From: Octopus vulgaris | Lineage: Eukaryota | Direction of reading: 5' to 3' | Length of the DNA stretch: 64,000 nucleotides | Assembly (NCBI GenBank): GCA_951406725.2 | Contig: OX597815.1 | Location: 84,072,001-84,136,000, forward strand | Shown here: piece after piece, positions 38,071 to 59,428 of the stretch | Position numbering within the stretch: position 1 is the first letter of the stretch | How the letters are laid out: the number at the start of each line of letters is the position of its first letter | Translations under genes and position numbers: made by a program | The notes under the pieces: generated by a model | What the model saw: only the letters and a program-made list of their open reading frames with translations | What the model was told of the DNA's origin: nothing | Databases searched by the model: none

Positions 38071-39028
38071 CGCACACACACACACATATATATACATATG
38101 TAATTTTAGCAATTTAATAGAAAATCCTGCTGGTATGAAGTCTCAACAGGGTATTAAAATAATTCCTATTTCACTGTAGGTCTAATATATTTCCGAACGC
38201 GACACTTCTCAGAAGTTGGATAACTAAAATATATTTCACGCTTAATAATGGAATTATCCTTAAAATTTAGTTATTATTCAACAAAATACTAGTGGTGCAC
38301 AAAACAATAATCAAGAACAAAATGAAAACTATGTATCAACTCTTTTGTAGCTATTATATATTGTTCTAGCGATAATTTATATTTATTTTAAAATATAAGG
38401 TAGACGTTTTATTGGGTAGATGTTCTACTGTATGGGTACTGGGAGATGATGTTGTTGGTATGATTTTCCTTTCCATTGTTTAATGAAATATTTTGGTATT
38501 TCATGACTTTTCGTGGCTAAATTGAAAGAAATAGGAAGAATAACTTCTTTAGAATTACATACTTTGATAAATCATGTCAAAATTGCATGAACGGCAGATA
38601 TGATAACAATATCATCAATAATAACAACAACAACAACAACAGCTACTACTACTACTAATACTACTACTACTACAGTAAGAGCACAAATGTTAATCACACT
38701 AATAAGAAAAGCATAGAAAATTAACAATAAAAGTGAAAGGAAGACGAAAAAAATTGAGGAAGTAAAATGAAGAAAGGATACCTGGCAAAATCAATTATCT
38801 TTTTCTATTCTTATACTCACTCCTTCCGTGATTAATTTATATAATCATTATTGTTACTCTCCAAAATGCCGCCTTCTCAATTGTACCAGAGATTAAAAAT
38901 GAAGATGATCACTATTAGATGAAACAGATGAAAAAAAATCTGTTATCACCATCAATATTATTATTTCCAGTATCAGTATCATGCGCACCACCACCACCAC
39001 CATCATCATCATCGTCACCGTCGTTGTT

Positions 39029-39916
<888 letters not shown>

Positions 39917-39924
39917 TATTATTA

Positions 39925-39955
<31 letters not shown>

Positions 39956-40008
39956 GATTATTATTATTATTATCATTATTATTATTATTATTGTCATTAT
40001 TATTATTA

Positions 40009-40055
<47 letters not shown>

Positions 40056-40682
40056 ATTATTATGCAATAGTCTTATTTGTTGCATTATAACTCAAATATT
40101 CTATTTATTATTAGCCTCGAATTTTTCATTAGTTTTGGCAGTATATTTTGTGGTTTTAGGCGCAAGATCACTCACTGCATTCCGAGACCCCTCATGGTAG
40201 ATATTGACAGTGGATATCACAAGTCAACAAAAGAGCCGACTCTCCAATCTGCTTAGATATTTCTTGTGACACTGTAGCCATATATACGTTAGCTAATTCG
40301 GCTAACAAACCATTTCTTAACAAGACCATTATTTTGCTTCCTACCTCTGTCTAGATCTTACTCGTACACAACTTTGGGTTGAACCAGACTCAAAGCACAT
40401 TCATCATTCTCTCGACCCAGTAACAAAAGCCATTAATTCAGAGGGATTCATTCTAAGGAGGCTCAAGTGGACACCTAGTTTCTTTTCCCAATTATAGGCG
40501 TCTTAGTATTGATCAAAATGGTTGAAAATAAATGCATAAACTAAAACCCGGACATAGAAATATGAAAAATTTACAATAAATGGCATTATTTACAGCATCA
40601 TAACTATTACAGACTATGTTCTTAATATTATAGAAACGACAATATCAAAATAGATAACTGTACATACATATCATTATTATTA

Positions 40683-40753
<71 letters not shown>

Positions 40754-41297
40754 GAGTGAGAGAGCAGTGCATGCCATCAAAGTGACACTGGGGTAAAATA
40801 TACGAAGCCTAGTATAACCATCATGACTACCCGTCTGATAAGGGTACACTAGGCACATGCATCACAACCATGTGTGCGCGACATGGTGATCTCATATCAA
40901 GATAAACAGCACATGACCTTGCAGGTGGAGCCCAGATAGAATTTTCTTCAGGTCGAGTAACCCATCCCACTCGAAAGGTCCCTGAATAAGGGTTGTTTAA
41001 GGATGTTGAACGAAACACCCATGTTTCCAGAGGTGAATTATCCAAACCCCAAAGAACCCCGCTCAACACACGTCTATGATGCTCCCCCACTACTTCTGCT
41101 CGTGATCAGAGATGCACATATCGTCAGCCATGAAGGGACATGCTCAACTGGTTAAGGTCAAACAACTGACAAGCAACTCTGTGGTATTGAGCAGAATATT
41201 TGCTGTAGCCCATCTTTTATACCAAGACAAAACAATGTACATGATAACACTTCCAATCAGTTAAGATCAGAAGCCATGAGAGCCACTGCCTGGTACT
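40754..41297 (-). mobile_element. 544-bp non-coding element X inserted in (TTA)n
   Basis: Sharp boundaries with TTA arrays on both sides, several hairpins, no credible ORF. Strand is inferred from the array orientation. Confidence 0.65.
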
Positions 41298-41400
41298 TAT
41301 TATTATTATCACTATTATTATCATTATTATTATCATCATTATTATTATTATCATTATTAATAATAATAATAATAATTATTATTATTATTATTATTCTTAA

Positions 41401-41476
<76 letters not shown>

Positions 41477-41479
<3 letters not shown>

Positions 41480-42205
41480 TAGTATATTTTTTATATCGTG
41501 CTTTCACTTCACTACCGAGCTCAGCTCTGTGTGCCTTGGGTATGTACTGTGATCTGTTGTAATGCTCTGATGGTTATTGTATGGAAAGTGTTCTGCGTAG
41601 GATGTGTGCAGCGCCTAGTAGTGCAATTTTCTGTATGTTATATGTGTTTGTAAGTCCTGGTGTTTTTGTTATGTATTTGTCTAAATATTTTTTTATCATG
41701 CCTAATGCACCTATTATGATAGGAATTGTTTCTCTTTTTAGATTCCACATTCTGGTTACCTCTATTTCCAGGTCTTTGTATTTTGAAAGTTCTCCATTTC
41801 TTTTAGAGACACGTTGTCATCCGCTGGTATTGATACATCAATTAGAAAACATTTTTCTTCTTCATGATCTCTGACAACTATATCTGGTCTGTTGGCCTTA
41901 ATTTCTCTATCTGTGTGTATTGGCATATCCCAGAGTATGGTTGCTTTCTCGTTTTCTGTGACCTGTTCTGGTGTGGGCCTATACCATCTTTTTTCTGTTG
42001 TTATTCCATAATGTTGGCATAGTTTCCAGTGTATATAGGTCCCAACTCTGTCGTGTCTGTGAATATATTCCTTCTTAGCCAGGACTAGGCAGCTAGAGAT
42101 AATATGATCTATTGTTTCTTGCCCATCTCCAAATATTCTGCAGTTACTTGTTATATTTCTTTTCATTACATGTTTTTGGTAATTTCTGGTGGGGAGGCTT
42201 TGGTC
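41477..42205 (-). mobile_element. R4/Dong-type LINE family B (duplicate copy)
   Basis: Identical by eye to 39188-39916. Confidence 0.93.
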
Positions 42206-42213
42206 TATTATTA

Positions 42214-42244
<31 letters not shown>

Positions 42245-42297
42245 GATTATTATTATTATTATCATTATTATTATTATTATTGTCATTATTATTATTA

Positions 42298-42344
<47 letters not shown>

Positions 42345-42971
42345 ATTATTATGCAATAGTCTTATTTGTTGCATTATAACTCAAATATTCTATTTATTAT
42401 TAGCCTCGAATTTTTCATTAGTTTTGGCAGTATATTTTGTGGTTTTAGGCGCAAGATCACTCACTGCATTCCGAGACCCCTCATGGTAGATATTGACAGT
42501 GGATATCACAAGTCAACAAAAGAGCCGACTCTCCAATCTGCTTAGATATTTCTTGTGACACTGTAGCCATATATACGTTAGCTAATTCGGCTAACAAACC
42601 ATTTCTTAACAAGACCATTATTTTGCTTCCTACCTCTGTCTAGATCTTACTCGTACACAACTTTGGGTTGAACCAGACTCAAAGCACATTCATCATTCTC
42701 TCGACCCAGTAACAAAAGCCATTAATTCAGAGGGATTCATTCTAAGGAGGCTCAAGTGGACACCTAGTTTCTTTTCCCAATTATAGGCGTCTTAGTATTG
42801 ATCAAAATGGTTGAAAATAAATGCATAAACTAAAACCCGGACATAGAAATATGAAAAATTTACAATAAATGGCATTATTTACAGCATCATAACTATTACA
42901 GACTATGTTCTTAATATTATAGAAACGACAATATCAAAATAGATAACTGTACATACATATCATTATTATTA

Positions 42972-43039
<68 letters not shown>

Positions 43040-43583
43040 GAGTGAGAGAGCAGTGCATGCCATCAAAGTGACACTGGGGTAAAATATACGAAGCCTAGTA
43101 TAACCATCATGACTACCCGTCTGATAAGGGTACACTAGGCACATGCATCACAACCATGTGTGCGCGACATGGTGATCTCATATCAAGATAAACAGCACAT
43201 GACCTTGCAGGTGGAGCCCAGATAGAATTTTCTTCAGGTCGAGTAACCCATCCCACTCGAAAGGTCCCTGAATAAGGGTTGTTTAAGGATGTTGAACGAA
43301 ACACCCATGTTTCCAGAGGTGAATTATCCAAACCCCAAAGAACCCCGCTCAACACACGTCTATGATGCTCCCCCACTACTTCTGCTCGTGATCAGAGATG
43401 CACATATCGTCAGCCATGAAGGGACATGCTCAACTGGTTAAGGTCAAACAACTGACAAGCAACTCTGTGGTATTGAGCAGAATATTTGCTGTAGCCCATC
43501 TTTTATACCAAGACAAAACAATGTACATGATAACACTTCCAATCAGTTAAGATCAGAAGCCATGAGAGCCACTGCCTGGTACT
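43040..43583 (-). mobile_element. Element X (duplicate copy)
   Basis: Identical by eye to 40754-41297. Confidence 0.65.
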
Positions 43584-43686
43584 TATTATTATTATCACTA
43601 TTATTATCATTATTATTATCATCATTATTATTATTATCATTATTAATAATAATAATAATAATTATTATTATTATTATTATTCTTAA

Positions 43687-43780
<94 letters not shown>

Positions 43781-43781
<1 letters not shown>

Positions 43782-44414
43782 TATATTTGACTTTTGCTTT
43801 ACATTTGCACAAGCTGGCCCCAAGTCTCACCCAGAGACCTCAAGAGACAATTTGGAAGTTCATGTTGGTGTTATGCCTAGGGTGCCATATATTTGGTTTT
43901 GTACTTAGTGTTGTATTAGTGAATGCCTAAAGAACCATACGAAAATTATGTTTGTTTTAAAACTTGAGATTACATAGAAAGCATTTTGCGTAGGATATGA
44001 ACAGTTCTCATGAGCACTATCTTTTGAATTTTTGCTATTTTGGGGTTTGCTGGTATCTGAGTTAGGTAGCAATCAACCCCTTTTGCTATCATTCCCAGGG
44101 CACCTATGACAACAGGTATTGTTTTAGTCTTCAGGTTCCACATTTTGCTGATTTATATTTCCAGATCTTATATTTGCTCAGTTTCTGGTAGGTCTTGACA
44201 GATACGTTTATATCGATTGGGCCACTCATATCAATGAGGAGGCATGGTTTTTGTCTGAAGTCTTTTACTATGATGTCTGGCCTATTCGCGTCTATCTTTC
44301 TGTCAGTTTGAATAGTGAAGTTCCAGAGGAGTGAGAAGCGGTCATTTTCAAGCACTGGAGGTGGTTTGTGTTCCCATCAGTTTTTATCATGGGGTAAGTC
44401 CAGGTTTTTGTAAA

Positions 44415-48919: not shown

Positions 48920-49067
48920 TAATAAGATACTGCTGTGACTACACATAAAACAATATCATTGATGATGATGATGGTGGTGATGGTGACGGTGATGATGATA
49001 ATGATGATGGTAATGGTGGTGATAATGATGATAGTGATGGTAATGGTGATGATAATAACAATAATAA
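48762..49067. repeat. (TAA)n/(TGA)n microsatellite, opposite orientation to most arrays in the window
   Basis: Direct reading of the sequence. Confidence 0.9.
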
Positions 49068-49618
49068 GCCGACTACGGCTGCTATAATGGTACGATTATA
49101 ATTGTAACGGCAATGATGGCCGTCTCCCCACGAGCCAATCAAAGCTAAAAAATGATAACATTATCGTAGCACCAAAATGTTTTTGGAAACTAAAAGGAAA
49201 ACTAAATCAGTATACCAAATCGCTTGTCCTATGGTTAATCTGGAAGCGCGTCCCCCAGGGAAGAGCCAGCCTGGGATCGAAAAGTCATCAGCTGGCACAA
49301 ACTCTTCTCCGAATACGGACATGGATGGTCACTTGAACGGGAAATCCCCCAACTCGAGCCCTCCAAGTTAACCACCACAACCACCACAGAAAGAAAAATG
49401 TAAGCGGAACAAATGGACCCGAGAAGAGTATAAAGAAGTAATATACGCTTATTACTATGCATTAGGTAGGCCATCTCAAGAGAGACACACCGCAAACTCT
49501 TACAGTACTGAGTTTGGTTTAATGGCCTACCAATATATACTATGAGCTTCTTTGCCCTAGGAGTCGGGAAGACACTCGGCAAGAAATGGAAGCAAATTTG
49601 AAAGAAGAAAAAAAAAAA
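49068..49618 (+). mobile_element. Internally deleted R4/Dong family-E element (5' ORF start fused to 3' UTR)
   Basis: 49330-49503 matches the reverse complement of 53790-53943 (RNKWTREEYKEVIYAYYYAL, Myb-like N-terminus). 49506-49610 matches the 3' UTR of the 54373 and 57678 copies. (TAA)n tail follows. The 5' boundary is uncertain (49068-49120). Confidence 0.85.
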
Positions 49619-49706
49619 GTAATAATAATAATAATAATACATATTATCGATGGTTTGCACAGTGCATCGAGATTTTTCCTTTTCACTAACATTTTTAGAA
49701 AATTAC

Positions 49707-49843: not shown

Positions 49844-49917
<74 letters not shown>

Positions 49918-49932
49918 ATTATTTTCATTATC

Positions 49933-52900
49933 ATCTTTCAGTTTTGTTTCCATTTCTTGCTGAGTGTCTTCCTGACACCTAAGGCAAAGAAACGCATTGC
50001 ATACACTGGTAGGCCATTAAAATAGACACACCAGATTAATCATTTAGAAAGTCATGTGAATGAGAAAAAGGGGAACAAAGACTGAGATATAAAGGAAAAA
50101 AATAAATAAGGCGCAGGAGTGGCTGTGTGGTAAGTAGCTTGCTTACCAACCACATGGTTCCGGGTTCAGTCCCACTGCGTGGCACCTTGTGAAAGTGTCT
50201 TCTGCTATAGCTCCAGGCCGACCAAAGCCTTGTGAGTGGATTTGGTAGACGGAAACTGAAAGAAGCCCGTCGTATATCTGTATATATATATATATGCGTG
50301 TGTGTGTTTGTGTGTCTGTGTTTGTCCCCCTAGCATTGCTTGACAACCGATGCTGGTGTGTTTATGTCCCCGTTACTTAGCGGTTCGGCAAAAGAGACCG
50401 ATAGAATAAGTACTGGGCTTACAAAAGAATAAGTCCCGAGTTGCTCGACTAAAGGCGGTGCTCCAGGATGGCCGCAGTCAAATGACTGAAACAAATAAAA
50501 GAGTAAAAGAGTAAGTAAACAGAAAATAAAGGGATAAAATGAAAGAAGATTCATAGCGACAATGCCCTTTTCAGTACGTGTGAAGTACCAGTTAAGACAA
50601 TCTTTTGCACTTCCAGCATGGATGGTAAGCCAGGGATCATTCTTAAATAATTTTCAGTTCCTTTCTGTATCATTCCTAGGGCTCCTACAATCATTGGCAT
50701 TGTAACCATCATGAGATGCCTTATCTTTTCGATTTCGATTACCAAATCTTTGTTTTCTGAGCTTATCAAATTCTTTTGCCGAGATATTATGGTCACAAGA
50801 TATGCTTACGTCAATCAATAAACAGATTATCTTGTTTTGGTCTTTTACAACACTATCTGGTTTACTTGCTTTGATGGCCCGCTCTGTACATAGTCCCAAA
50901 AATCATTACATTTTCTCCCTCAGGATGGTGCTTGTACCATTTGTCAGCAGTTTTGATTTTATAATGCCGACACATTACAAAATGTAGATATTGGTCAACT
51001 CTGTCATGTCTTGATTTGTATTCTACAGGTGCTAAAAACTTAGACCCAGAGTTTAGGTGGTCCACTGTTTCAATCTCATCGTTGCAGTATCTGCACTTTG
51101 GGTCCACACCATTTTTCATTCCACTGGCTTGATAGTTCCGGATCAATAAGCTCTGATCTTCAGCAACCAAGATAAAGCCTTCTCTCTCTGCCTTTAGCCC
51201 TGACCTCCGTAATCTCTGATGGGTGTCCTCTACTTGTTTGCTATCGGCCGCATATTTGCCATGCAGAGATTTTTGTTTCTGCCTATCGGCCAATTGTTGG
51301 TGTTCGTTTCGCTTTGCTATATATTTCACCGTCTTTGCACCTATAGTTGCTGCCCTTCCCTCATGCTGTTCAACCTGGGTATTATGCATGAACTCACTTG
51401 AAAGTTTTTTGCTCTCTTCATAACAGAATGAAGCTTTTTCTATCTTTCATGGTTTTCAACGAGTTTTAGCATCCAGTCGTTGGATACTTTGCCAGTCCAA
51501 TTGTGGTGGTTTTGTCAAAGATTTCAAATTGGATCAAGCGTCGACCACCTTGAGTTCTTTGTAGGTAAAGACGATCTGCGTCTGCGTTTGGGTGGTGCAT
51601 CGTGTTGCAAGTCAGTAGCTTATGGATTTTCCTGTAAATTTTCCTAATTTCGCTCATATTCCAGTTCAACACATTGAACTGTAATTAACAACCGGAACTC
51701 TTAAGGAAATTGTAGCTAGCATCTTGTTAAGTGCACTTAACTCGGATTTTAGGACAGCTCAAACTCTCCCGTAACATTAGCTTCCAGATCTTCTCTTTCA
51801 TGTTTGCATGTTGAATGCTAGAGCCCTCTTTTATTCCGAGGTATTTCTAAGTTTATTCCTGCACGAGTTCTTTTATGACCGTGTCAACATCCACCACCAC
51901 TGAGGTTTTCAATTACCCTTTCTGGTAAGTGGCCTTGGCACATTTATCAAGACCAAATTCCATCCCGATGTCATCAATTAATGCTTTCACAGTACGTAGT
52001 AGTTCTTCAAGCTCTTTATCGTCTTTGCCATAGAGTTTTAAGCCATCTGTATAAAATAGATGACATATTTTCTTGTGGGCAATTTTATATTCATACACTG
52101 TTCTCTTAAATGCACTTGTAAGGTGTATTAGGGCTATGCAAAAATTTAAAGGTGAAAGTGAATCACCTTGGAAAATGCCGCAGTTGATATGAATATTTTT
52201 GTGGTCAGTACTCCATTAGAATGATATAATTGGAGATTTGTAATCGACACTGAAATGTTGTGCTTCAGGAAGTTTGAAATCACAGGAGAAATGTTGAAGC
52301 TATCTAGTGATTTCAAGATCTATGAATGCAGTATGCTGTCAAAGGCCATTTTGTAATGGATCCATGCGGAACTGTGTTACCTGCGTTTGTTATGACAGTT
52401 CTCAAGGAACATGCGATTAATTAAGTGTTGGTCTTTTCATCGTCCCTTTTTGTTCAGTGAGGAATATATCGTTCTGTTCCATAAATTTGTTTGGTTTTTG
52501 CACGAGGTTGGATGTTAAAATTTTATACGTGATAGATAGACGTTGTGGGCAGATAGTTCGGGGGAAATTTGGTTTCATTACTCCTCGGGAGTGAGTAAGC
52601 AATACTTCTTGCTATCCAGTCAGGTGTTTTCATAAGATCTCTCGTGATTTCATTGAATAACTGAACTAACTTCTCGTGTGCGCACGAGAGCGGTACGATC
52701 CAGAAATTTGGCACCCTATCATAACCAGGGGATTTTCGCTTATGGACCTTCGTGAGTGTCATTCTTAGGTCTGGTACTGTGAGGTCTGCCCATGCTTGTT
52801 CTGGCAAATTTTGGTAGGTTCCTTCTCTGCGTCTAATTCAGTTTGCATTTTCATTGTTTTCTTTATTCCAAACATCTTTCCAAATGTTTTCAACTTCTTT

Positions 52901-54266
52901 CATAGGAGCAGGGTCATCAACGGTTATTTTCTCCTCTTTATTTTTCTGTAGAATGTTTTCGCATTGGATGTGAACAGCTTATTTTACTTGCAAAACTCGT
53001 TTCACTTCTCAAATTTTCGTATTATTTGAGATTTTTCTTGGACTTTTAGTTGTAGTGTTTCTTTTGCTGAAAGCAGTTCTTCTCTTAGTGAGAATCTGTT
53101 TTCTCTTCATTTTTCTTCCTCTTCTGGGTTTTTACATCGTTTCCACAGATTAGTTCTTTCAATATTGATATTTAATCTCTAATTATCTAAATCTCTTTCT
53201 CGCTTTTACTTTTCCAGTTTAGAATTCTTCTCAGATTTGTATTTCTTTCTGGTTCCGATTGTCTTTGCAGCTGCGTAAATAATTTCATATAATTCAGTGA
53301 GATCTGGTTTTAGTTCTGGTATAATTTCATTTGTTACATAGTTTCTAATTTTAATCAATTTTCTATTTTGGATTGTATTTGAGAGTTTATGAAATGCTTC
53401 TCTATCCTGCATATTGGCGTGTCTTTTAACTGAAAGCTTTTTGGGGTTTTTTTACTTCATTTCTATCATAGTCGCTCTATGTTTTTCAGTAATATTGCTT
53501 CTTTACCACTTCCCTTCCTATCTTTATTAGGTTCATTACCATTTATATCTTCCGACATTTGCGTGTTCTGGTCAGATAAAAGTCTTCCAACCGAGACTCG
53601 TAGACAGTTGTTCTCTCCGTCTGGTTCTTTATTTCCTTTCTGTCTTGTATTTAGGTTATTTCCTGCTGCGTGCTTGATCGCAGTTGTTTCATCTGTTAGT
53701 CTTTTATTTCTGAAGACATCCCTCCTAACATTTGCTCACTTGTTTTCGTCTAAATATGGTCTGCTATTTTGATTTTGTTTTCTCCATATTTGATAAGAGA
53801 GAGCGGTGTGTTTCTCTTCAGATGGCCTGCCCAATACACAGTAATGGTAGTATATTATTTCTATATACTCTTCTCAGATATATTTGATCCTCTTACATTT
53901 TTACATTGGAGGGCTCGAGTCGGGGCAGTTCCCGTTCAAGTGGAAAATTGTGGATATTAGGGTTCTTAAAATTTCTAAATATGATCGTTTGTATGTCAAG
54001 CTAAAGAAAACTATAGTGTTTTTGCAAATGAAAAGGATGTTTACATATTCGAATACTCGCCTTCGTCCAGAAAAAACTGCATATATGTAAGTTTTTGAAG
54101 TTATTTTGAAGGAAATTTAAAACACACACAGAGTATTGAAGATATTCCAGTTTTTGAGAGTTATTTTTTCAATTGTTCTGCATTAGCGTTTTTCTGTCTT
54201 CGGTTGCTGGCTGGCTGCTCAGAACAGCAAAGAACACGTCCAGCCGTTCTCCAAGGTTAGCGCCCT
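49933..54266 (-). mobile_element. Near-full-length older R4/Dong family-E-related element, pseudogenised, 3' UTR interrupted by a SINE
   Basis: Collinear ORF pieces at 53206, 52523 (KSPGYDRVPNFW), 52417, 51913 (HLFYTDGLKLY), 51466, 50862 (CRYC..ETVDHL), 50654 (KPD..LID) and 50551. 3' UTR at 49933-50100 resembles family E. Whether 53945-54266 is its 5' UTR is less certain. Confidence 0.9.
50110..50515 (+). mobile_element. tRNA-type SINE family S2, full length
   Basis: ggcgcaggagtggctgtgtggtaag (A box), gggttcagtccc (B box), internal (TA)/(TG) tract, tail aaagagtaaaagag. Confidence 0.9.
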
Positions 54267-57640: not shown

Positions 57641-57677
57641 TTATTATTATTATTATTATTATAATTATTATTATTAT

Positions 57678-59353
57678 TTTCTTCTTTCAAATTTGCTTCC
57701 ATTTCTTGCCGAGTGTCTTCCCGACTCCTAGGGCAAAGAAACTCATAGTATACATTGGTAGGCCATTAAACTAAACTCAATAGTTCGTTCATTTTTTTTT
57801 AAAGTTAAATTAAAATACATGGGTAGTAATAGTTCTCACATCGACAATGCTCTTCTCAATGCGTGTGATGTACCAGTTAAGACAATCTTTTGCAATTCTT
57901 GCAGGGATGGTAAGCCAGGGATCATTCTCATATAATTTTCGGTTCCCTTCTTGATCATTCCTAGTGCTCCTACGATCACTGGTATTGTAACCGCCTTGAG
58001 ATGCCACATTTTCTCAATTTCAAGGAGCAGGTCTTTATATTTTCTGAGCTTGTCAAACTCTTTCGCCGAGATATTATGATCACAGGGAATGCTCATGTCG
58101 ATCAATAAGCAAAATTTATTGTTTTGGTCTTTCACAACAATATCTGGTTTATTGGCTTTGATGGTTCGGTCTGTATGTAGTGGAAAGTCCCACAGAATCG
58201 TTACATTCTCTCCTTCAGTTACAGCTTCAGGGTGGTGATTATACCACTTGTCGGCAGTTTTGATATTGTAATGCCGACTTATTAGCCAGTGTAGATATTG
58301 GCTAACTCTGTCATGTCTTAATTTATACTCCACTGGTGCTAAGACTTTACATCCAGAGATTAGGTGGTCCACTGTTTCAATCATGTCGTTGCAGAATCGG
58401 CATTTTGGGTCTGCTCCATTTTTCATCACATTGTCCTGGTAGTTCCGGGTTAATAGGCTTTGATCTTGAGCAGCCAGGATGAAACCTTCACTCTCTGCTT
58501 TTAGCCCTGAGCTCCGTAGCCACTGATGGGTTTGCTTCTGGTCTACATCAGCTTGTTTGCTACGGGCCACATATTTGCTATACAGAGGTTTCTCCTCCCA
58601 CCTATCAGCCAATTGCTCGTACCCTTTTTTCGTTGCCATTATTTTCACCTTCTTTGCAACAATAGTTGCCGTACTTCCCTCGGGTTGTTCAGTTTGGGTA
58701 TCCCGCACGAGATCAATAGCAAATCTTTTGCTTTCCTTTATGATAGAATGAAGCTTCTTTCGTCTCTCGTGATTTTCCACGAGCATCCAGTCATTCGTTA
58801 TTTCAAGATATTTCGCCAGTCCAATTGTGGTTGTTTTGTAAGCTAGTTCAAATTGGATCAGGCCTCGACCTCCTTCGGCTCTGGGAAGGTAAAGGCGATC
58901 TACGTCTGCCTTTGGGTGGTGCATCCTATTACAACTCAGCAGCTTGCGTATTTTCCTATCTATATTCTTTACTTCACTCATATTCCAGTTCAACACATTG
59001 TAGCTATTAGTAACAACTGGAACTGCTAAGAAATTTATAGTTAACACCTTGTTACGTGCATTTAGTTCAGATTTCAGGACTGCACGAACTCTCCTATAAC
59101 ATTCCTTCCTGATGCTCTCTTTCATGCTTGCATGCTGAATACCAGAGCCTTCATTTATCCCTAAATAGTTGTATGTTTGTTCTTACTCAAGCTCTCTTAT
59201 GACTGTGTCAACATCTAACACGACTGAATTTGTGGTCTTCACTTTCCCCTTCTGGAAAGTGGCCTTGGCACACTTCTCAAGCCCAAACTCCATCCCGATG
59301 TCATCGCTGAATGCTTTCACAGTGCGCAATATGCCTTCAAGTTCATTATCGTC

Positions 59354-59355
<2 letters not shown>
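57678..59355 (-). mobile_element. Young R4/Dong family-E LINE, second 5'-truncated copy
   Basis: ORF 57836..59125 (429 aa) is nearly identical to the 54373 copy. CAA>TAA nonsense change near 59185. Truncated just downstream of YMDD. Confidence 0.96.

Positions 59356-59428
<73 letters not shown>

Follow-up and report, generated by a model that had tools for sequence, protein, structure and literature searches.

In R2, a LINE of the RLE type, both ends of the RNA come into play during integration. Its 5' and 3' RNA motifs that bind the element protein act in a single integration complex, and in the excerpts of these reports used here each RNA is described as binding protein, with no description of pairing between the two (PMC6895275; bioRxiv 10.1101/2023.04.07.536001). 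LINE reverse transcriptases are described as needing no homology in order to jump and as capable of displacing duplexes (PMC6895275).

Elements made of the two ends of a LINE are also known. In the R2 SIDE and in the R2/R1 SIDEs of Drosophila, the ends of an RLE-type LINE are joined by an internal deletion, for which a template jump is one of the mechanisms offered (PMC3414825). The Persaeus SIDE, derived from the CR1 element Zenon, likewise arose by internal deletion repeatedly and independently, and its authors suspected that a structural motif favored the event. It differs from the elements described below in belonging to another clade, in its high copy number, and in that short direct repeats were proposed, with no RNA duplex in the text excerpted here (PMC6740152). 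Pairing over a long range is documented in Ty1, where the CYC5-CYC3 interaction between the 5' region and a segment near the 3' end cyclizes the RNA and is reported to be critical for reverse transcription and transposition; Ty1 is, however, an LTR element that uses tRNA priming and strand transfer (PMC3681743).

In Octopus vulgaris, five recently active Dong-R4 families with 1,129 insertions have been described (PMC13282606). These LINEs resemble the family studied here, family E, in having a single-ORF reverse transcriptase (RT), a CCHC motif, a PD..D endonuclease motif, a (TAA)n end and flanks, and many young copies (PMC13282606; PMC9115989). RNA structure, internal deletions, and 5'-3' pairing go unmentioned in the excerpted parts of both accounts. 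SIDEs from R2 and CR1, Ty1 cyclization, and active octopus Dong-R4 families are already known. To our knowledge, a TPRT element has no known need for cyclization. A search of titles and abstract openings, in which subscription journals are thinly covered, returned no paper reporting that the 5' and 3' regions of a non-LTR element pair with each other.

Drosophila SIDEs are amplified families, each derived from a rare event for which recombination was preferred (PMC3414825), whereas in family E we find many single, independent events at one structural site. Our reading, to which we assign a probability of roughly 0.6, is that a predicted, conserved RNA duplex between the 5' coding region and the 3' end guides template jumps that drop a 3.4-kb loop. 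The copy from which this work started would then be one of a recurrent set.

An internally deleted LINE copy and its parent family

The window (the whole stretch of 64,000 nucleotides of O. vulgaris DNA that was analyzed) contains an internally deleted copy of a family E element, referred to here as a mini-copy, together with two truncated copies of the same family. Positions marked L035 refer to a single full-length copy used as the coordinate reference, not to a consensus.

48920..49620, + strand: internally deleted family E mini-copy; young Dong/R4-type LINE, 5' end to codon ~116 joined to last ~110 nt
49414..49446, + strand: codons of the conserved N-terminal W-T-R-E-E-Y motif (landmark "W")
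49447..49507, + strand: family E 5' arm, within the ORF (L035 818-878); outer helix 49447-49474, inner helix 49493-49507
49506..49507, + strand: deletion junction with a TA microhomology of 2 nt; 3,424 nt missing
49506..49546, + strand: family E 3' arm, within the 3' UTR (L035 4301-4341)
49549..49586, + strand: conserved 3' hairpin with outer stem, 3-nt bulge, and inner stem-loop
54343..56670, - strand: 5'-truncated young family E copy with native 3' arm
57641..59356, - strand: second 5'-truncated family E copy with native 3' arm

The mini-copy terminates in an A-tract followed by (TAA)n and differs from L035 by 2 mismatches in 437 nt of its 5' part and 3 in 110 nt of its 3' part. Its 5' part has 724 candidate matches in the 2.8-Gb genome (G000), of which the 40 that were scored are 99-100% identical. 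All 20 copies fetched at length are full-length, and three of them have an open frame of 1,234-1,235 codons. A fixed GAT/GGT/AAT tract at the 5' end of family E (L035:270-460; window 48920-49090) is common to most full-length copies and resembles the target repeat.

L035 has a single long ORF of 1,235 codons with a Pfam RVT_1 match (E 9.6e-30); a protein fragment of 98% identity is labeled Octopus vulgaris in its source. Direct reading of the family E protein (P0001) revealed a CCHC motif (CRFC...H...C) and the PD..D endonuclease motif (PDIVV...IDMS...K); its zf-RVT match lies under the Pfam cut-off, and R2 proteins are its nearest solved relatives (E 2.5e-45). The printed 3' ends of the 20 full-length copies run into TAA repeats, as in Dong elements, which both insert into and end in (TAA)n. 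Since family E combines TAA-repeat ends with RT, CCHC, and PD..D motifs in a single ORF, its anatomy, together with the published octopus families (PMC13282606), fits the Dong/R4 clade.

Two landmarks of the element are used throughout. The 3' hairpin is likely the RT recognition site; it gave no above-threshold match in Rfam. Its form recurs in distant relatives with different letters in the inner stem (L193:3930-3975, L196:2832-2880, L198:2204-2250, L205:2832-2875), and in L213 it overlaps the stop codon. Landmark W, which we take to be Myb-like, gave no Myb-like match in Pfam.

The first-pass annotation of this DNA had proposed that the deletion junction is the tip of a fold-back, formed by motifs that were indeed present where it placed them: GGTAGGCCAT at 49465-49474, CAAACTC at 49493-49499, GAGTTTG at 49510-49516, and ATGGCCTACC at 49522-49531. 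The 91-nt stretch folds back with -27.2 kcal/mol (z -3.5), a value equaled or bettered in 2 of 200 shuffles. Both arms are native, as had been stated, each core 10-mer being present in 20/20 full-length copies and the 3' arm also in the truncated copies of the window. The junction lies at the inner tip as described; its position is corrected from about 49505 to 49506-49507, and the loss amounts to 3,424 nt relative to L035 and not to ~3.7 kb. The predicted duplex ends at L035 878, and the junction joins L035 878 to 4303. A panhandle had also been proposed for the full-length RNA. The native arms and the predicted duplex agree with this, but the regions involved are not the extreme ends: the N-terminal coding region, ~550 nt inside the element, is predicted to pair with the segment just upstream of the 3' hairpin.

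Taken alone, the complementarity in family E is weak to modest. The claim that it exceeds chance is upheld by a strict score in four copies with a G variant in the 3' arm (p 0.015-0.025), but not in two copies with an A variant (p 0.20-0.23) nor by a loose score (p 0.35-0.62, five copies). In a comparison of 391 windows of 60 nt with the terminal 121 nt of the 3' UTR, the 5' arm ranked below the best 15. Among the 20 copies, 11 carry G at the variant position, 8 carry A, and 1 has a deletion at the site; the related families F and K carry G. An unconstrained fold of the whole RNA (3.95 kb) contains the helix in 5 of 9 family E copies (G 3/3, A 2/6), and in L046 it predicts a 17-bp helix that is present in 197 of 200 sampled structures, bearing in mind that folding predictions for RNAs this long are unreliable.

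Where deletions end in family E

A search pattern requiring both arms close together returned four further family E mini-copies with different junctions. Because this pattern is biased, an anchor survey was made in which a single 3' anchor was combined with seven 5' anchors spread over the element, at most 500 nt being allowed between anchors, so that 2,954 nt were scanned. The survey covers unchanged anchors and breaks between L035 619 and ~3,690, apart from small gaps between windows. L035 served for checking or choosing five of the six control anchors, and the four that were counted are present in 15-19 of the 20 copies; more copies are available to the downstream control anchors.

The anchor at 605 yielded 11 loci, 10 of them independent, and all break at 857-918 although ~430 nt were open to them. 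The other six anchors gave 2, 0, 0, 1, 1, and 4 independent events. Altogether, the survey gave 18 independent long deletions that extend to the 3' end, and in 10 of them the break lies in the same 62 nt (L035 857-918), at the inner tip of the predicted duplex. With the discovery copy excluded, this stretch of 62 nt, out of 2,954 scanned, accounts for 9 of 17 events (p ~8e-10 after correction for the number of windows), which agrees with the earlier expectation that junctions would not be random with respect to the duplex. It is the clustering of junctions, not the energy of the duplex, that exceeds chance. Over 13 events, the positions of the 5' and 3' breakpoints show an anti-correlation (rho -0.74, p 0.004), which is weak inside the main cluster (p 0.07, n=11).

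The mini-copy in the window had been called SIDE-like. As in a SIDE, the 5' and 3' ends of the parent LINE are joined by an internal deletion; a re-retrotransposed family with one common junction was not found. The exact junction occurs once in the genome, a second match to the junction pattern being unrelated DNA, so this copy has not spread and an amplified SIDE was rejected. The other family E junctions are all distinct, local duplicates aside. Splicing was also rejected, since junctions vary between copies and the window junction is without GT-AG ends. Among the 15 of 111 joints listed, there was no contig bridging the window junction, which is uninformative about its frequency; both native sides are covered by public contigs.

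The sequence at the junctions is informative about their origin. In the 12 simple family E junctions the overlap is 0-2 nt. One complex junction, at L068 (G000:C6:69113743-69114197), contains ~58 nt of inverted pieces of the 3' UTR and the 5' region, which points to a reverse transcription step. Deletion of DNA after insertion, in which the inverted arms would fold back and give rise to repair or slippage, appears very improbable in this light. Bypass of a DNA hairpin usually removes both arms, and the mini-copies keep them. The overlaps in family E are short, the inverted inserts of L068 fit copying of nascent cDNA, and interrupted helices 3.4 kb apart would be poor DNA substrates. What speaks for a DNA event is the precedent of the R2 SIDEs, whose likelier origin was judged to be non-homologous recombination (PMC3414825), and a set of four family H loci that share one junction with a short shared sequence (see below).

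These data also bear on the earlier proposal that the RT jumped across the base of the panhandle during TPRT. The short overlaps are compatible with a jump, and so are the inverted inserts of L068. The geometry, with both arms kept and the loop removed, does not correspond to a jump over the stem's outer base. We consider the RNA duplex to be the most likely cause of the breakpoint hotspot, acting as follows. The enzyme would start at the 3' hairpin, displace the 5' arm while copying the 3' arm, and stall either at the tip or on the A-tract immediately within. Alternatively, it might reach the end of a broken RNA, the two halves of which had stayed together. In either case it would resume on the nearest RNA, the displaced 5' strand, so that the loop is lost and both arms are kept. 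From its conservation we infer that the duplex may have a normal role, for example in holding both RNA ends in one particle.

Other copies show unusual arrangements near the ends of the element. In L054, L059, L060, L061, and L062, inverted 3' ends stand head-to-head and meet at or near the 3' arm, which suggests fold-back or facing insertions at that arm. Upstream of position 1459 in L063 and at the 5' end of L329, the 5'-most 20-35 nt are tandemly re-copied at the 5' junction (families E and H).

The inverted pieces at L068 and the head-to-head 3' ends could be taken to mean that the enzyme now and then places an inverted copy of the 5' region in the 3' UTR, the complementarity being a by-product without selected function. 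We regard this as hardly credible, given that the same proximity of the two regions would be needed to begin with, and that in families with short UTRs (L213 and H) the partner lies in coding sequence at the end of the ORF.

Complementarity and hotspots in related families

The sister family F has ~80% DNA identity to family E and is represented in the window by an old copy with both arms.

49896..53945, - strand: old, decayed, near-full-length family F copy, its 3' UTR interrupted by a short repeat
53790..53845, - strand: family F 5' arm
50000..50035, - strand: family F 3' arm; its predicted pairing site in the 5' arm is not the one used in family E

The short repeat in the 3' UTR of this copy (window 50100-50500) is probably a SINE.

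The 3' arms of families F and K are worded differently from that of family E, yet they complement their own 5' arms. The family F 3' arm pairs with the part of the 5' arm that is looped out in family E, and the family K UTR provides a third wording, a mosaic complement of the 5' arm of K itself. Mean predicted duplex energies are -32.0 for E5xE3, -31.9 for F5xF3, -19.1 for F5xE3, and -42.8 for E5xF3, and the two K 5' arms give -31.9 with K3, -23.9 with E3, and -34.0 with F3. By these predictions the family E 3' arm needs the family E 5' arm, while the reverse fails: E5xF3 is stronger than E5xE3, so the cognate pair is not always the best. One family F mini-copy (L286) breaks at the homologous place, and a search for a second one returned none.

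Two more distant families have their 3' ends in the window.

39200..39916, - strand: family H 3' end, used as query for H copies and for the H deletion hotspot
43790..44376, - strand: family J 3' end; no hotspot

A 2.3-kb tandem duplication that is 98.9% identical (window 39027-41494 and 41315-43779) contains a family H 3' end.

Family H has ~50% amino-acid identity to family E. An anchor in the same N-terminal motif gave 51 mini-copy matches, compared with 4 for a control anchor in the RT region and 5 for an upstream anchor, of which only 2 break before the motif. In the 30 of these 51 loci that were mapped, the breakpoints are widely spread, from W+40 to W+248 on the 5' side and over 18-237 nt upstream of the stop on the 3' side, and the 5' and 3' positions are not anti-correlated (rho -0.03). 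The duplex predicted for family H is weak, and variants present in most H mini-copies break its 7-bp core. The 5' and 3' variants of H mini-copies travel together (9/12 versus 1/11, p 0.003), a linkage that fits one RNA molecule. Four H mini-copies at separate loci (L328, L340, L351, and L358) have one common junction with a short shared sequence in different sub-lineage backgrounds; this junction is either recurrent or marks a small mobile lineage.

For family J, an anchor at the N-terminal motif, taken from a single copy, returned no matches. Its predicted 17-bp helix between ORF and UTR (L318:1929-1945 with its own 3' UTR) lies in a different place, and a test set beforehand gave one event there (L367, 26 nt past the predicted helix) versus none for the control. 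Taken together, the hotspot is real and common to families E and H, with one matching case in family F.

The behavior of family H is the best evidence for a different account, in which the element protein bridges the regions by binding 5' and 3' RNA domains, as in R2. Jumps would land at the 3' border of the bound 5' domain, and the complementarity would be auxiliary. In family H a strong hotspot follows the shared motif, while only a weak duplex is predicted and the breakpoints lack anti-correlation, and the R2 motifs cited above set a precedent for the arrangement. With bridging, however, one would not expect unrelated sequences to show cognate complementarity in homologous places, nor 3' arms that differ between E, F, and K yet match their own 5' arms. 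As the sole cause it seems to us unlikely; it is compatible with a guiding duplex, and both may act.

A locus related to two of these families, L396 (G000:C16:12053399-12058149), carries a family H 5' part (codons 69-396) followed directly by a family K 3' part (codons 701-1235) and is either a chimera or a nested insertion. As a chimera, it would be the kind of product expected if short 5' RNAs ending just past the motif, through early termination or decay, were picked up in trans by an enzyme that had come to the end of a broken 3' fragment; a nested insertion could also account for the locus. R2 is reported to jump to other RNAs in vivo (PMC3414825). We nevertheless hold capture in trans to be improbable as the source of the mini-copies. 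It leaves the conserved complementarity unexplained, and the 5' and 3' variants of H mini-copies are linked, although sub-lineages active at different times would produce the same linkage.

The prediction of a guiding duplex was extended to other relatives, taken from public contigs. A test restricted to the UTR in eight distant families gave no clear signal, 0.08-0.97 of other windows being as good, and by design it misses partners at the end of the ORF. In folds of the whole RNA, the region just after W pairs with the last 100-300 nt in L193, L197, L200, L213, family F, and 2 of 3 H copies; the homologous pairing is absent from the folds of J, K (L406), L201, and L274. Windows set after these folds had been seen gave a combined p of 0.0017 for seven families. 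With the windows frozen, the held-out families gave p 0.33 (own decayed copy) and 0.025 (cross-copy) for K, 0.47-0.83 for T1, and 0.12-0.16 for T2, where the T1 and T2 tests and one K test combine ends of different copies. Anchoring narrower windows on the conserved 3' hairpin brought 8 of 12 families to p<0.03, and no signal was obtained in this way in the other four, J, L201, L274, and T1.

To limit the effect of tuning, 969 window pairs were scanned in nine families without E, F, and K. The peak is the pair of W+20 and 85 nt upstream of the hairpin bulge, which coincides in part with the family E duplex. It has a scan-corrected p of 0.0025 against circular shifts and p <=0.036 with any one family left out. 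In the same nine families, cognate pairs beat cross-family pairs (permutation p 0.012); the off-diagonal cross-family scores are also mildly negative, that is, slightly favorable, which indicates that composition contributes. All these p values are optimistic because window sizes and grid phase were chosen afterwards. The duplex and its homologous position in these families are predictions, and the evidence for its conservation across the clade is no more than suggestive.

A broader proposal may be put forward tentatively. Selection might have maintained, in R4/Dong elements across animals, a duplex that closes the RNA into a loop by joining the N-terminal coding region to the stretch immediately 5' of the 3' recognition hairpin. 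This would be a working part of TPRT, and the mini-copies might then constitute a natural record of proximity ligation. If the duplex is real, the RNA of a target-DNA-primed LINE would be looped in a manner resembling Ty1, and the coordination of two RNA ends by RLE-type elements would include a further step. The duplex would also supply a physical cause for the repeated birth of SIDEs, a cause suspected in earlier work without being identified. The positions of deletion junctions in genomic copies would then offer a cheap read-out of long-range RNA contacts in retroelements. Because family E is young and has several intact open frames, the idea is directly testable.

Among the relatives collected, the Dong-like LINE copies L273-L275, L279, and L280 lie on contigs of a record titled as a bacterial MAG and are probably animal contamination.
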